DNA of 64,000 nt from a virus: IMG/VR virus record IMGVR_UViG_3300040786_000016; one strand, written 5' to 3'. The notes below the pieces were generated by a model. That model did not search any database and was not told the origin of the DNA. It worked only from the letters and a program-made list of their open reading frames with translations. Shown here one piece after another: positions 6,704 to 64,000 of the stretch. Each line of letters starts with the position of its first letter. The first letter of the stretch is position 1. The position numbers were made by a program, and so were the translations under genes.

Positions 6704-6778
6704 GGTCTATTCGTTCAACGGCTAGGATGCTACCCTGTCACGGTAGAGATGAGAGTTCGATTCTCTCATAGACCGCCA
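6704..6778 (+). tRNA. trnD: tRNA-Asp(GTC), CCA encoded
   Basis: CTACC-CTGTCAC-GGTAG arm; G discriminator then CCA. Confidence 0.92.
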
Positions 6779-28823: not shown

Positions 28824-29257
28824 ATGAATTTAAAAGAAAGAATAAATAGTGATTTCATGATAGCTTACAAAGCTAAAGATATGAATAAAAAAACATTTCT
28901 TGGGATATTAAAAGGAACGCTTCAAACCCAAGAAACCAAAGAAAACCAATCTTATCGACTGACGATAATGTATTATTATTAATTAGAACAATAGAAAAGG
29001 GTTATTGGAAACAATTGCTGGTCGTAAAAAAATGGGTTTAGATGTAAGTAGTGAAGAACTAGAACTTACATACTTAAAACCATATCAACCAGAGCTAATG
29101 TCTGAAGAATTAGTTAGGACTTTAGTTATAGGTTTAATTAAAGAATCAACAAATAAAACCAAGGATTTTAATAGGTCAATTTAACAAAAAAATTTAGTAG
29201 TGGTGCTTTAGGATTTGATAATAAACTTGTTGGGTTAATACTAAAAAAGAATTAGAA
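28824..29257 (+). CDS. GatB/YqeY domain protein
   Basis: MNLKERINSDFMIAYKAKD...LGILKG...YLKPYQPELMSEE. Confidence 0.75.
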
Positions 29258-57810: not shown

Positions 57811-60800
57811 ATTTATAACGTTAAAATAAAAGTAGCTTATGAAAATAGATGATGTCATATTAAAATTACAAGAATATAAAAAAGAACATGGTAATATTGA
57901 AGTTCGTGTAGCTGGTAGTATAGAATATTGGGAACAACTTACAATGAAGTAGATGATTATACTTTAAGAGTTGATGAGAAAACAACTTTAAACCCAAAAA
58001 ACAAGAAGATACTAAATCGGTTGTTTTCTGTTTTGGTTACGATGTAAATATCTTATAATGTTTTTCACTTATATGAGGTTATTGTACTTTCAATAAACTC
58101 AATTAATTACTAATTAAAAGAAATACAAACTAATGGTTAAATTAAGTAATAAACAGCCATATATCATACACGATATTAACAATAGTGATTTTCGTGTAGT
58201 TGAATACGATGGTGTTTTTCAAATACAAAGAAAACAGATTAAAATTAAAATTCTTGGTATTTTATTTTGGAAAAAAAGAAGAAGTTGATTGGAAATGTGT
58301 TGATAAATATGGAAAGTGCGTTTATTCAATTGACTTACGGTTTGGTAATATGAATAATTATCACCAAATTAAAGATTTTAAAGATTTGGATAGTGCTTTA
58401 GAAAAATAAAAGTGATGATTAAAGGTTACGTTATCATTACTGTTAACGTTTGGTGACCTATAAATACCTATTATAGTAAGTAGTGGGTAATTAAAACAAA
58501 ATTATAATATACCAAGACAAATGATTAAAGATAAAACAATAACAAATTAAAGATGAATTAGTTAATAGCTCAAAACTGAAGTTAGTACTTGACCTTGTGA
58601 CATATGAGCCGAGATACTCTTTTAATGATGAGCCTGATAAAATGGGAAGATGGGCAAGGAAAGCTATTTACAGAAAATTACATATTGCTTGGATTTCAAG
58701 AATAGAAAGTAATGGGTTATTAAATTTATAGTAAATACTTATTTCCCACTAACTGGTAATGATTGTCCAAATAAACACGAAATATGTAGCACTTATGAAG
58801 ATGCAAAATGGTAGTTGAAACTGTGGACCCATTCTTGAGGGTTGTATCTGAACCGATTGTGTAAATTAAAGACTATCACAAAATAATAACAACCTAAGCA
58901 CAAATGTAACAGCTTTATTTTATACTATTATGAAAACGGATTATCAATTATCATTAGAAACGAAGAACAATTTGAAAAGGTGTCTAAATTCATTGAGAAA
59001 ATTATTGTTACGTTAAATGGTTCCACAAATGGCTGAATATGAAACAGCGTTAGTTGTATGGGCAAAAAAGAAAACAAATAGAAGTACTGGGTCATTTTGT
59101 GCTAAAAAGTCAAAGACAAGATGAAATTAGAACGGTTGAATTTAGTGAGTTATTCTCATAACTTGATTAAAACGACCACAAAATAAAAACTAAATAAATA
59201 ATATTATTATGGATTTAACAGGTTTAGAACACGAAATCAATGGAACTACGCCAATGCCGAAATGCAATGATTTATATACATTGTTAGGTGCAGTTAATGT
59301 TAAAGACTATAAATGTCCTAATTGTGGTAAATGGAATAATGACGACCAATATGAAGTGAATAAAGAGCAATATCCTAAATGTTTTAATGAAAGCAAAGGC
59401 TATAATGATGGATGGAACCCATTGGGATTGGGAAGAGGTTCATTGTTATGAAGATTGTGAAACAAAATATTGGTTTAGTAACGGTGCTTATTAATTGTAC
59501 ATAACGTTTTGTGTATATACGAGGTACACATTAACTGAATTTTTAAATTATAAACAAATACTTGTAGGTATCTTGTATATATGCTATTATAAGTTGATTA
59601 AATTTTATTATATGGAAACTTACGATTATGTGATTTATGTAAACAATTCAAAGTATGGTGAAGCTAATAACCACCAAGAACTTATTGAGTTAATTGAACA
59701 AATTAGAGTAGAACGTGGAGAAGGTGCTAAATACACCATAACTCTCCATAAAATTTAATTTGTTTATAACATTTGCAAATATTTATAGTGGCTGATTCAA
59801 AACTATTGCAACCAAATATTACTAATAATTAAATTAAAAATTATGTCACAAGAAAATACAAATGAGCCATTTAGCAAGACTGCTATTATGTGTAGTTCGG
59901 ATTATGAACTGCAAAAAATGGTTTCAGATAAAGAATTAGATAAAGTTTTTAACCTATTCTAATTTTGGCGGTTCTACAAAAGAGATGTGGTAAGATATGC
60001 TTTAATGAAAGTCGCCTGTGGTTATCATAACGGACATACTTCTCAATGTATCATTAATGAACTTGGTTTATGCAGTAAAGACTTAATTCTAACTAAAAAG
60101 GAAAAGAGTATTTGTACGAATCTTTCATATACGGCACTAATCATTAGCATTACGCACAACAGTTTCAAATATGTTTAGGTTTTATTTGGAACACAAAACT
60201 TGAATTATTCACAAAATTAAATTATAAAATATGAACTTGAATGAACCACAAAACCGCAATTTAATATAGGTGATGTTAGCAGTAGTTACATTGGTAAAGA
60301 ATGTTTTGGGTAGATAAAGTAACCTATAAAAGACATATGATGGTAGAAAATTAGGTAAATGTGTAGATGAAGGGGTACATTCTTTACATAAACTACCAAT
60401 AGTTTGGTTTGAAAAACCTTTTCTTGGATTTACTTGGCAGTATAAATCGGATGTTCGTCTGTAATTACTGCTAAGGTTGGGTGTATAAGAAGTTTTTTAT
60501 TTGTAAATTTCAAAGTTATACTTATCTTTGTAAAACTTTTTTTATACTTTATAAGTATGTATTATTTTGTTTTACCAATTAAAAAAATTAAATTATGAAA
60601 TGTAAAGTATGTAAAGAAGAGATTAACCTAACTGTTTTGGAATACCAAACGATACATGTTGGGGTTGTTTACAAGATGAACAAAAGAAAGAAGTTGTGGA
60701 TACAAATATTAAATTATCAAATGAAATTGCTTATTTAAATATAAGTAGTACGATTAATTATGACTCTATAAAATACAGTCTAAATAGATTATTAGAAGAA

Positions 60801-60983
60801 AGAAAATGGGTTGCTATTGCTATTTTAGACCATAGTGAAAATACATATTACAAAGAATTATATGATTACTTAAATGTGAAAATAAAGTTTTACTAGCACT
60901 GGCTTAGTCTTGCTGTTAACGTTTAGCAACTATATTTAGTGCCGACTTATGAAAACTAAATTTTAAACTTAAAATTAAACAAA

Positions 60984-61256
60984 ATGAATAAAAGTACAAA
61001 ACCAACTGAAAATTTAGCCGAATGTGGTAATAAGTCAAAACCACTGTTAGCAAATCGTTATTTTAAGGATTTTAAATATACTTTAAAAAGAAAATTTACT
61101 TCAAGAGATAGTGACTTTGGTTCAAAAGAAAGACCATTCCCTAAAGATTGGAAAGAAAATCCAATGATACAAATAGCGTTATCAGATTACAAAGAAACTT
61201 TGATTAAAAACAATTTTGACATTTTAGTTGATGAAAATTTAGATTTTGATATATAA
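60984..61256 (+). CDS. Cassette-encoded hypothetical protein; start codon lies inside the upstream attC-like loop
   Basis: ATG at 60984 is within hairpin 60914-61052. Confidence 0.7.
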   Translation: MNKSTKPTENLAECGNKSKPLLANRYFKDFKYTLKRKFTSRDSDFGSKERPFPKDWKENPMIQIALSDYKETLIKNNFDILVDENLDFDI

Positions 61257-61670
61257 TGTTTGCTAACGGTTACAGATATATTCAGTTGAATACAAACTTA
61301 AATTGAAATACAAATGATAAAATTTATAAAGAACTTATTTAAAATACACAGAAAATTAAATATATCTGTTGTTATGTGTAGTGTTTGTGGTTCAAAAATA
61401 TCACAACAAAAGAACAAATGAGAAGAACTGGTGGTAAATTACATAAAGGTAGAATGATGAGTTATGGATATTTTTGAATGTTCATACTTGTGATGATTGT
61501 GGTAATGTGTGGATGGTGAAAGAACAAGAAATTCTTAACATTACACATAACGGTTGCAAATATAAGTAGTTATTAACTAAATTTAATTAAAAGAAAAAAT
61601 TGATATTAACAACATTTATTTGGAAGTAATGAAATAATTACTTATATTTGTTGTTATAAAACGTTTATTT

Positions 61671-61890
61671 ATGAAAGCACACGAATTTATTGAAAAGAAC
61701 ATTGGTAATAAAGTGTATGTAACTGGTGATGGTGATTTAGCAATGTGTTATGAATTTAGGAAAATTATTTTCAACAAAACAGAATTAACTATTGTTAAAT
61801 TAACTAAAAGTGGTATGGCTTATTTGACTGATGATGAAAATAATTTTATTTAGTACCACCAATGAAATGTTCGTGAGGTTGGTTCTTAAA
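61671..61890 (+). CDS. Cassette-encoded hypothetical protein
   Basis: ORF bounded by GTTATAA (61653) and TTATAAC (61895). Confidence 0.6.
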
Positions 61891-62402
61891 TGTTTTATAA
61901 CGGGAAAGCTATACGATGGTTGGGAAACGTACAGACCAATTCATTGATTAAAGACTGATTAAAAAAGTACAAACTAAACTTTAAATTTAAAAATTAACCC
62001 AACTATTGTATAGCGAATGTTAGCAGTAGTTATAATACTAAACGAGATGTCAACACAAAGCACAAAATGTCTTAGATACTTTAAGAAACTCGGTATTAAT
62101 AGACCATATTGACGAGGAAGAATTAGAGATAATTGCTCAAAGCATAGTTGAAAATTTATGTATAGAACACGATAGAGCACCAAAGTGGGAATAATTACTG
62201 CTAACGTTTTGCCTATTTTCTTAGTGCGGACTTAAACAACGAAAAACTTAATTATTAAAAATATGAAAACGATGATACACAAAACCGCATTGAGCAAAAC
62301 GAGTGTTAGCACTAGTTGTGGCTTATGAAAATAATTCACTTTTATTTGTTTATTACGTTTATTATACGTTACTTTGCCATATAATATTAAAAGATAGAAA
62401 TT

Positions 62403-62890
62403 ATGTCAAATACAGAATTAATGAATTTATCAGTTGAACAATTGAGAGATTTGAACAAGAGAATTATTGAGGTTGTAAAATTAAACAACAAAGTGTTGCC
62501 TTTGTAAATAAAGAACAACTTTCAAAAGGAATGGTGGCTGAATATGTAGGTAATTCTACAAATATTCATTACAAAGAATTTGAGATTATCAAAATCAATC
62601 GAACTAAAGCCGAATGTAAATGTGTAGTAACTGGGAAATTGTGGACTATTCAAATTTGCAATTTAAAACCAACAGAAAAACAGTTGAATTATCACACTCA
62701 ATTATCAACAAAACAGAAAAACAACCTAACAATAAAAAGCAATGGTAAGAATAGAAATGCAATTAACAGAGGAAGAAGTTGCAATTATAGAACAGATTGC
62801 AAAAGAAGAAAGTCGCTCACGTAAAAGCAATGTGAAACTTACATGAGGAAGATGATTTCTGATTATAAACGTAAACGTAGCAATTAGCGC
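62403..62890 (+). CDS. Two-gene cassette: SH3-like small protein and a ribbon-helix-helix-like peptide
   Basis: MSNTELMNLS...GMVAEYVG...; MVRIEMQLTEEEVAIIEQIAKEESRSRK; internal TACTTTG promoter-like box. Confidence 0.45.
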
Positions 62891-63093
62891 TAACGTTTTG
62901 CAGCTACAACGGTCAAGCCTAACCGTAATAAAACTTCGGCTTGATAAGTTGTAACTGCTGTTACCACTACCGTTGATAGCAAACTTCCTCATACACCTTG
63001 TTATACACAGTGCGGATTATTATAAAGAAAATTTAATTAAAAAAATATAAAATTATAAAAAATTATTTATTAACAGATTTTAATACTGAACGA

Positions 63094-63430
63094 TGGAAAG
63101 GTATTAATTTAGAAAGTGTGAAAACGCAAGTAGAAAATTTGAATGAAAAAATTAATAAAATTGGATGTTTATTTGGTGAAATAGGAAATCCAGAAACGTT
63201 TGACATTTCATTATCAAGAGCATCACATTCAATTAAAAATTTAACAGTAGTAGATAGTAAAGTTTATGGTGATGTTGAATTTTTGAATAATGATAACGGA
63301 AAACAAGCAGACAATTTTATTAATAATATGGATTGTAGATTTGGTATAAAAGTACAGGAACATCAGAACAATATAAAGATGGTGAAATAGCTATTCATTC
63401 AATTTTTACTTGGGATGTAATCAACTCCTA
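63094..63430 (+). CDS. Cassette-encoded hypothetical protein
   Basis: ORF 63118-63390 plus flanks, between GTTATAC (63000) and GTATAAC (63478). Confidence 0.55.
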
Positions 63431-63556
63431 ATAATTTTATTGGATGAGCTTGATTAGAAGTAGAGATGTAGCATTGTGTATAACGGTTTGCATCTTGTGG
63501 AAGTTGCGGATGATTCAAGACTGAACATCACAAAAAAAAACCTTTAAATTAAAACT

Positions 63557-63760
63557 ATGAATACAAATAACGACCAAGCACCGCAATTACCACAAAATGC
63601 TGTTATAAGCCGTTTTGTTTCTGTAAAATTAAGCAGAGAAATAGTAGAAGGGATGATTTCTACTTATGAATTTCTTGAATGGCAAAACAAAGGCTCTGAT
63701 GATGCAAAGGAATGTAAAAAATACTAAACGCACTTAAGAAGTCTCTGCTTTAAATGGCTT
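63557..63760 (+). CDS. Cassette-encoded hypothetical protein; start inside the attC-like loop
   Basis: MNTNNDQAPQLPQNAVISRF; GTT core at 63602 encodes the Val. Confidence 0.6.
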
Positions 63761-64000
63761 ATAACGGAATGTTGCTTCGGCTTGCTGGCTTGTAGCGCAG
63801 GTTATATTCTCGGCTTTTTTTACTAACAAATTAAAATAAATAAAATGAAACTAGAACAAAAATTTGAAGTAGTAGAGCCAAATCACGTAAATTATCTTGA
63901 AGGTTTGGTAGAAGTTGCTGATGAATATGCAATTGATTTTGCAAAATGGTGTTTTAAAATTTTGATATGACAACTACAATTGACGAATTATTAGAAATCT

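Follow-up and report, generated by a model that had tools for sequence, protein, structure and literature searches.

A probable integron-like array of small gene cassettes headed by hairpins that carry start codons in phage DNA

The question raised by the right-hand end of viral record IMGVR_UViG_3300040786_000016 is whether a recombination site can also be the beginning of a protein. The stretch analysed here, referred to at its full length of 64,000 nucleotides as the window, has a G+C content of 28%, carries nearly every gene on the + strand and contains 26 tRNA genes; towards its end, small genes alternate with imperfect palindromes resembling the attC sites of integrons. A preliminary description of this DNA proposed that the AT-rich loops of these palindromes supply the start codon and N terminus of the protein that follows, such that shuffling would exchange N termini and switch translation on or off by frame. 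Our comparisons with related phages lead us to regard the region from 59.5 to 64 kb as, probably, part of an integron-like array of small gene cassettes with reverse polarity and translated hairpin leaders.

The hairpins belong to a single family of sites with a strict design. Read on the coding strand, a site consists of a flank of 6-8 nt, TAAC, an unpaired 4-nt spacer (typically GKTT), a covarying stem of 17-19 bp that encloses an AT-rich loop, a second spacer of 0-1 nt, GTTA and a further flank of 6-8 nt, and it is positioned 5' of the open reading frame (ORF) that it serves; the two spacer lengths are kept in nearly all sites. In an alignment of 51 external sites, AAC and GTT are the sole invariant columns, and RNAalifold returns a 19-bp stem with compensatory changes at 19 of 19 pairs. 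A covariance model, R1, was built from 51 aligned sites of other phages, with those of the window excluded. It finds 10 matches in the 64 kb, all on the + strand between 59490 and 63922 and with E-values down to 4e-18, and no credible match in the rest of the window. The loops of all five start codons named in the preliminary description (59843, 60231, 60984, 61314 and 63557), whose positions agree with the sequence, fall within these matches. Two orphan half-sites were also noted in the window, an unpaired left arm CATTACTGTTAACGTTT at 58435-58454 and a right arm ATACACCTTGTTATACAC at 62995-63012, which closely follows the short site at 62891-62963. Both resemble what decay or deletion of a full site would leave behind.

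An architecture scan of all fetched loci gave a survey set of 121 unique sites of 48-196 nt, 72 of them 120-129 nt long, with a second group at 80-99 nt. The family is found in more than 50 independent contigs plus cultured phages, on contigs of 9.6 to 327 kb. Bacterial genomes are nearly free of it: a scan of 185,579 species with the arm of one site type, family 6, gave 45 arm matches, 5 of which have the full hairpin, and no bacterial integron carrying this site family. Simpler searches performed poorly, an ungapped arm scan being too strict for detecting these sites and a 14-mer from the left arm returning only chance matches in IMG/VR.

The sites are not symmetrical with respect to strand. 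In the survey set, 111 sites have the more stable arms on the coding strand and only 7 on its complement. Among the 51 aligned sites, 48 keep G.T at one stem pair (alignment A2, columns 36 and 142), while its neighbours covary freely; on the opposite strand it would be a C.A mismatch. No conserved bulged bases were seen of the kind that mark the recombined strand in attC sites. This pair may mark the active strand or may be an RNA contact.

Reading frames in the window have to be handled with care. It contains no ORF longer than 192 aa under genetic code table 11, table 4 or with TAG read as Gln. Alternative codes (table 4, TAG as Gln, TAA as Gln) do not restore long ORFs, and the breaks resemble indels; when TAA is read as Gln, frames open on both strands, only via many recoded codons. 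Within the array stretch, genes are split over several frames at 61314-61569 and at 62017-62192. Two runs of A are each one base short, the first (63716-63721) when compared with clean relatives, at the cost of the last 11 residues of a protein that we call K, and the second (60250-60253) when compared with a homologous hairpin of locus L130. Several JGI proteins (among P0009-P0015) are near-identical to a 90-aa protein of the window and are truncated at different points, which suggests repeated error-prone assemblies of one phage. The window is probably an indel-rich assembly; frame arguments made on it alone are therefore fragile, and relatives are used instead.

The proposal that the loop ORFs read through the right arm and core holds for the ATGs at 59843, 60984, 61314 and 63557, the (G/A)TT core being read as a codon from 59843, 61314 and 63557. 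It fails for 60231 as sequenced: this frame stops at TAG 60267, and the peptide attributed to it, QFNIGDVSSS, lies in a different frame that is closed upstream by TGA 60242. An extra A in the short run, as in the L130 hairpin, would bring ATG 60231 into frame. Two further ATGs had escaped the earlier account, one in the loop of site S9 (62263) and one straddling the core of site S8 (62017). Across the survey set, the frame of a loop ATG stays open for at least 30 codons beyond the core in 62 of the 92 long sites (~125 nt) and in 3 of the 29 short ones. Of those 62 long sites, 54 read GTT as Val, 8 read it in the shifted form xxG TTA and none uses the remaining frame; loop ATGs are thus in frame well above what chance would predict. 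The earlier remark that the core is mostly Val, with a shift in the case of the peptide LLANR, fits this distribution well, the LLANR frame being a real minority class. Spacing is also regular, the distance from ATG to core being 19 codons in 25 of 28 family-6 sites.

Within the loop, codon-position entropies of 0.85, 0.61 and 0.97 amount to a weak coding signal. The arm codons are fixed at all three positions, which makes the arm uninformative about translation and points to a constraint on nucleotides, not on the peptide. On/off switching of translation by frame is plausible, given the two classes of frame and the loop ORFs that end shortly past the core. Two sites had been described as carrying a promoter box of the form TAnnTTTG, and the boxes are indeed present inside both (TATCTTTG at 60523 and TATATTTG at 61643), each with TTTG about 17-23 nt upstream. 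No other site among the 12 of the window has the motif, and its density in the array (0.89 per kb) does not exceed that of the window as a whole (1.38 per kb). That the two boxes serve as promoters is plausible.

The evidence that carries the assignment of the start codon comes from proteins whose conserved part begins exactly at the core. Protein K, 56 aa long in the window and encoded behind site S11, has homologues in 2 IMG/VR and 23 metagenome contigs. Nearly all of these 25 genes are preceded by the same type of hairpin with an in-frame loop ATG; conservation runs from the core onward (V[IS]SRFV.VKL), and the peptides upstream of it vary with the hairpin type. In K, the stretch from the core to the conserved residues contains neither ATG nor GTG nor TTG, which leaves the loop ATG as the sole candidate start. 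A start between core and conserved residues is likewise lacking in a DUF4326 protein, in which the Pfam match starts at residue 25, directly past the core-encoded residues, and in the family of the window's 90-aa protein. Existing annotation points the same way: the RefSeq start of gp033 of Cellulophaga phage phi19:3 is placed at the loop ATG, and the annotated starts of gp42 and gp60 of phage P12002L lie within hairpins. The idea that the loops provide start codon and N terminus is, on these comparisons, well supported.

Protein K deserves a few observations of its own. Typically about 65 aa long (..RFV.VKL.R...EGMISTYEFLVW..), it is widespread in aquatic phage contigs (loci L121-L145), and its homologue at L131:3001-3204 had no Pfam family in our scan. 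In L121, L124 and L125, the hairpin has been lost and K is the second gene of a two-gene cassette. Past the core of the site 3' of K, the window (63798-63822) and L122 (6326-6345) share a conserved (C/T)TCGGC motif followed by a run of T, which is CTCGGCTTTTTTT in the window; in L122 the motif pairs with the 3' arm in the manner of an intrinsic terminator.

If hairpins supply N termini, the same hairpin-encoded peptides might be expected on unrelated proteins, a check that the preliminary description had put forward. Such shared leaders were found, and so were single ORFs that carry different leaders. The arm of family 6, the commonest type of hairpin, is present in 29 IMG/VR contigs, about two dozen of which have a loop ATG leading, 19 codons on, through GTT. 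The resulting leader, MKKEQNL..QAL[NT]IPVV, heads about 20 unrelated proteins whose bodies vary from contig to contig. Among the fetched loci, 65 loop-started proteins fall into 52 blastp families. One hairpin is shared by L122 (5915-6043) and L132 (1698-1826), being 90% identical exactly from TAAC to GTTA, and precedes K in one locus and an unrelated ORF in the other. The leader of site S5, M..TKPTENLAECGNKSKPLLAN (KSKPLLAN type), occurs on YopX (PF09643) proteins and on at least three other bodies. Conversely, the 90-aa body of the window (RY.KDFKYTLK...) occurs with six other N termini; a pattern search found no relatives of this protein in IMG/VR, and relatives are present in the protein collection. 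The body end GTTAGCAGTAGT is read as VSSS in one frame class and as LAVV in the other, so frame compatibility is a real constraint. Taken together, the comparisons show repeated exchange of leaders between bodies at the GTT core.

A separate matter is to which cassette a hairpin belongs. Over 70 bodies, the octamer that follows GTTA was compared with the reverse-complemented octamer that precedes the next TAAC; they agree at 5.5 of 8 positions on average, against only 2.6 of 8 when the flanks on either side of a single hairpin are compared. These inverted, covarying body ends include GTTAGTAGCC...GGCTACTAAC and GTTATAAGCC...GGCTTATAAC, with GTTAGCAGTAGT...ATTACTGCTAAC as a further pair in the window. 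Complementary ends of this kind are the classical mark of a circular cassette intermediate, and by themselves would fit either polarity. Over the 12-nt flanks of all loci, the body ends outside the cores systematically read ...GT on the 5' side and AT... on the 3' side; if the ends pair, A opposes G at a constant position, ~11 nt away from the core.

The breakpoints of homology around K are more telling. Among 130 pairs of loci compared by BLAST, the homology never crosses the next AAC core. On the 5' side, it extends into the upstream hairpin in 35 of 106 pairs, through the whole hairpin in 18 of these, and stops at the GTT core in the remaining 71. L131, L132, L133 and L136 all have hairpin and K in common; on the left their sequences diverge directly outside the stem, and on the right as soon as the next TAAC is passed. 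These breakpoints, and the position of a recombinase gene and an attI-like motif downstream of the arrays of related phages (see below), point to a reverse polarity: each hairpin most likely belongs, as its head, to the cassette whose ORF it leads. The canonical layout assumed previously, with each hairpin as the tail of the upstream cassette, is probably wrong. The associated claim that shuffling swaps N termini stands in part: exchanges at the GTT core are seen, but canonical shuffling would then move leader and body together. Two further arrangements were considered and rejected. Invertible segments, with gene bodies flipped between their inverted ends, do not fit the orientation of K relative to the hairpins, which is identical in all 25 loci; and insertion of hairpins into a palindromic target formed by TAAC and GTTA does not fit, the two flanks of one hairpin not being complementary to each other.

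A candidate enzyme is encoded at the end of some arrays. Among 25 hairpin-bearing IMG/VR records, 4 encode a tyrosine recombinase in an open frame of 273-289 aa (PF00589, E 1e-33 to 1e-42), in each case directly downstream of the last hairpin cassette and on the same strand. The called ORFs of the two loci examined are 267 and 268 aa long, and both also match PF13495. Their match to TIGR02249 scores 156-158 bits (cut-off 265) and is made in two separate stretches; their best NCBIfam match is NF040815, 'XerA/integron integrase', at 177-197 bits (cut-off 220). In three of the four records, a conserved ATTATATATA follows the last AAC core in place of the next hairpin, and this junction is a candidate attI. 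Cultured phage phi19:3 (L146 4997-8254) has a comparable layout, with three hairpin sites, including that of gp033, and a junction of AAC with AATGTTATATAA at ~6707-6725. One gene further on lies a different tyrosine recombinase of 418 aa, gp036; taken as an integron integrase this protein was rejected, having no TIGR02249 match and only generic matches to PF00589 and PF13102. When the array is read on the opposite strand, the usual integron layout appears, namely integrase, attI and cassettes that each end in a folded site with crossover at the distal core. The contrast with a usual integron is that every ORF is then antisense.

These elements can be assembled into a working model. A cassette would consist of a hairpin plus an ORF, the loop ATG being the cassette's own start. 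The loop of the long class of site (~125 nt) would hold the translation start, and the ribosome would read the 3' arm and GTT core as codons, yielding a leader of about 20-24 aa fused to the gene body. The primary crossover would take place at the AAC core of the folded coding strand, catalysed by the short Xer/IntI-like recombinase next to the attI-like junction of AAC with WATTATATATA at the downstream end of the array; in the phage analysed here, that gene would be located past base 64000. New fusions of leader and body would come from a second, rarer route, namely exchange at the GTT core. An array of this type, with reverse polarity and translated leaders, is what we consider the probable explanation of the locus. 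A wider proposition is offered more tentatively: that phages of Bacteroidota run their own reverse-polarity integron, in which hairpins are portable start and leader modules and site-specific recombination at the GTT core builds in-frame proteins. Such fusion of leader and body would be akin to exon shuffling with a phase rule (GTT as Val), and common leaders might have a function of their own in translation timing, targeting or turnover.

A number of observations weigh against a recombining array of this kind. Frame breaks are many in the window, and as it stands the sequence closes one of the five loop ORFs. No recombinase was detected in the 64 kb by tblastn, and three complete or nearly complete site-bearing genomes (G001, G008 and G027) have no PF00589 match. 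The recombinases that do accompany arrays score below every NCBIfam cut-off and, their IntI match being split in two, may lack the IntI-specific insertion. A single canonical crossover would not produce the breaks in homology seen at both cores. The five bacterial hits with a full hairpin all come from metagenome-assembled genomes, four of them on contigs of ~7 kb or less. Finally, the only family member tested in the literature, P12002L_attC1, showed no recombination with IntI1 (PMC9892861), and the coding-strand bias and retained G.T pair (as G.U) suit an element that acts as RNA.

This last point leads to the most serious alternative, which we nonetheless judge unlikely: that the hairpins are mainly RNA elements, either loops that hold the start region or processing sites, and that the mosaic junctions arose by homologous or single-strand-annealing recombination. 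The hairpin would then keep an AT-rich start region unstructured, in phages whose hosts lack Shine-Dalgarno-led initiation. The arm codons are invariant at all three positions, several site-bearing phages encode RecT-like annealing proteins and no tyrosine recombinase, and the PeSLs of T4-like phages, for which recombination of this sort has been proposed, offer a precedent (PMC2839356, PMC4122927). Left unexplained, however, are the invariant AAC and GTT, the fixed spacers of 4 nt on one side and 0-1 nt on the other, the complementarity between the ends of a body but not between the flanks of one hairpin, the short-class sites with the same cores and no start codon, and the array ends of five loci, where a recombinase gene accompanies an attI-like junction.

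Considerably less probable is the view that the loop ATGs are unused, with translation beginning at the core (GTT-ATG) or at a later ATG and the open arm frames a by-product of AT-rich, stop-poor sequence. The absence of any start between core and conserved residues in K, the DUF4326 protein and the 90-aa family speaks directly against it, as do the 54 : 8 : 0 distribution of frames and the constant 19-codon distance in family 6. Its appeal lies in the 20 of 121 sites whose core reads GTTATG and thereby places an in-frame ATG directly past the core, including S2 and S6 of the window; in the third of long sites that have no loop ATG and are followed by a gene starting 3-100 nt downstream; and in loop ORFs that stop a few codons past the core (S9; L131 3216-3336). 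A last possibility is that the inverted repeats arose by chance in AT-rich intergenic DNA or are artefacts of assembly. The indel errors of the window and a loose duplex scan with about one weak match per 2 kb over the whole window might lend this some colour, but it is refuted by the strength of the R1 matches, their clustering in the array alone and the recurrence of a covarying family in independent contigs and cultured phages.

Table 1. Hairpin sites of the window with associated start codons and genes, and recombinase genes at other loci. R1, match to the covariance model (span, score, E-value).
Feature	Coordinates	Strand	Details
S1	59502-59589	+	TAAC 59502-59505; degenerate right core ATTA 59586-59589; R1 59490-59601, 38.4 bits, E 2e-6
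S1, next gene	59613	+	own ATG
S2	59767-59888	+	TAAC 59767-59770; right core ATTA 59885-59888; R1 59755-59900, 22.9 bits, E 0.009
S2, loop ATG	59843	+	in frame (..TAIMCS); ORF 59843-59962, TAA break, frame resumes to 60178
S2, second ATG		+	in frame, immediately past core (ATT ATG)
S3	60157-60278	+	CAAC 60157-60160; GTTA 60275-60278; R1 60145-60290, 70.1 bits, E 1e-13
S3, right arm		+	~80% identical to L130 hairpins encoding ..EKPQLNIGAV in frame
S4	60460-60575	+	degenerate: left core now TAAG, right arm decayed; R1 left arm only, 60460-60497, E 2.6
S4, loop	60523-60530	+	TTTG-N17-TATCTTTG (box at 60523-60530); next gene ATG 60595
S5	60917-61049	+	TAAC 60917-60920; GTTA 61046-61049; R1 60905-61061, 22.7 bits, E 0.011
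S5, loop ATG	60984	+	CTG TTA GCA, shifted frame (..LLANR); intact 90-aa ORF 60984-61256
S6	61264-61374	+	TAAC 61264-61267; GTTA 61371-61374; R1 61252-61386, 62.5 bits, E 7e-12
S6, loop ATG	61314	+	in frame (..NISVVMCSVCGSK); zinc-ribbon gene behind split over three frames, to 61569
S7	61548-61656	+	TAAC 61548-61551; GTTA 61653-61656; R1 61536-61668, 57 bits, E 1e-10
S7, loop		+	no ATG reading through; TATATTTG 61643-61650 in right arm; next ORF 61671-61853
S8	61898-62022	+	TAAC 61898-61901; GTTA 62019-62022; R1 61886-62034, 83.1 bits, E 1e-16
S8, ATG	62017	+	loop without ATG; this ATG spans core (A-T-G, then TTA); gene behind frameshifted near 62112
S9	62202-62308	+	TAAC 62202-62205; GTTA 62305-62308; R1 62190-62320, 59.6 bits, E 3e-11
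S9, loop ATG	62263	+	GTT 62305 in frame; stop TGA 62326, 7 codons past GTT (21 codons); next gene ATG 62403
S10	62891-62963	+	short class, 73 nt; 18-nt loop without ATG; arm duplex -17.3 kcal/mol; spacers 4 nt and 0 nt
S11	63481-63605	+	TAAC 63481-63484; GTTA 63602-63605; R1 63469-63617, 89.4 bits, E 4e-18
S11, loop ATG	63557	+	in frame (..PQNAVISRF); K gene 63557-63727
S12	63762-63801	+	short/weak, after K; left core GGCTTATAAC, inverse of K 5' GTTATAAGCC; R1 weak, 63750-63922, E 0.036
S12, next gene	63845	+	ATG, after run CTCGGCTTTTTTT
Recombinase, L222	1468-2274	-	short Xer/IntI-like tyrosine recombinase
Recombinase, L223			short Xer/IntI-like tyrosine recombinase
Recombinase, L224	1468-2271	-	short Xer/IntI-like tyrosine recombinase
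Recombinase, L225			short Xer/IntI-like tyrosine recombinase
Recombinase, L158	4560-5363	-	short Xer/IntI-like tyrosine recombinase

Integron cassettes are usually seen as promoterless whole genes, each followed by a non-coding recombination site. Here the site stands before the gene and is probably translated, the same head of ~20 residues is found on many unrelated proteins, and one body may carry many heads. If the recombination is site-specific, this would be a natural system for making in-frame protein fusions and for activating silent bodies by joining them to a start codon, and it would be at work in viruses, virulent and jumbo phages among them. There is also a practical consequence for annotation: in these phages, starts, the orientation of sites and the borders of cassettes will be wrongly assigned by programs that call genes or find integrons. 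Phage phi19:3 is in culture and combines hairpins, an attI-like junction and a tyrosine recombinase, which makes it a model ready for the bench.

The closest relatives of these sites in design are the attC sites of integrons. Both are folded imperfect palindromes in which AAC and GTT alone are invariant, with an unpaired spacer and a variable loop; the cassettes, too, share complementary ends and an arrangement in arrays of small ORFs of unknown function, and in some phages an Xer/IntI-superfamily recombinase and an attI-like junction lie at one end of the array. The differences are equally clear. Whereas attC follows its ORF, the phage sites lie 5' of ORFs, on the coding strand; the loop carries a start codon, and the 3' arm and core are probably translated. 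The phage recombinase is short (267-268 aa in the two loci examined), runs in the same direction as the cassettes and scores below the cut-off of the IntI model. Many carriers have no recombinase at all, and homology breaks at both cores.

Clusters of attC sites without an integrase (CALINs) have been reported in phages (Front Microbiol 2023, PMC9892861). P12002L_attC1 of that study is a short-class member of the present family (NC_028924 30008-30056, - strand); P12002L_attC2 (29175-29243, + strand) was considered and is not a full member of this architecture. The term 'start codon' does not occur in the main text of that paper, and we found no description of start codons or leaders inside attC-like sites in the literature on CALINs, on ORF-11 and ORF-18 of attI1 or on PeSLs.

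The PeSLs (promoter-early stem-loops) of T4-like phages are repeated regulatory motifs that precede small genes in variable regions, and a role in modular shuffling has been proposed for them (PMC2839356, PMC4122927). In these respects they resemble the hairpins described here. A PeSL combines an early promoter with a terminator hairpin. PeSLs are not known to have AAC and GTT cores, complementary cassette ends, an encoded part of a protein or a dedicated recombinase. By comparison, a host-type promoter box is present in only 2 of the 12 window sites, and the stems enclose the start codon instead of following a promoter.

The repeats of Vibrio cholerae, attC sites of ~120 nt in sedentary chromosomal integrons, offer a parallel in their narrow length class (~125 nt in the phages) and in site families that are common to unrelated cassettes. 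Vibrio cholerae repeats come after the ORF and are not known to contribute to its translated part. Site families of the phages differ further in being spread over very different phages and nearly absent from bacterial genomes.

The nearest functional precedent is found in ORF-11 and ORF-18 of attI1 in class 1 integrons, where a start codon within the site opens a frame that runs across the crossover into the inserted cassette, and where the outcome is set by the first bases of that cassette (PMC8876359). In 62 of the 92 long phage sites, the frame of the site's start codon crosses into the cassette in the same way. Since the phage sites are attC-like and not attI, this is a functional analogy and not homology. 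ORF-11 is confined to attI; short and placed upstream, it usually terminates within the core and helps the first cassette by translational coupling. In the phage arrays, by contrast, any long site can carry the start, and the frame continues as the cassette protein itself.

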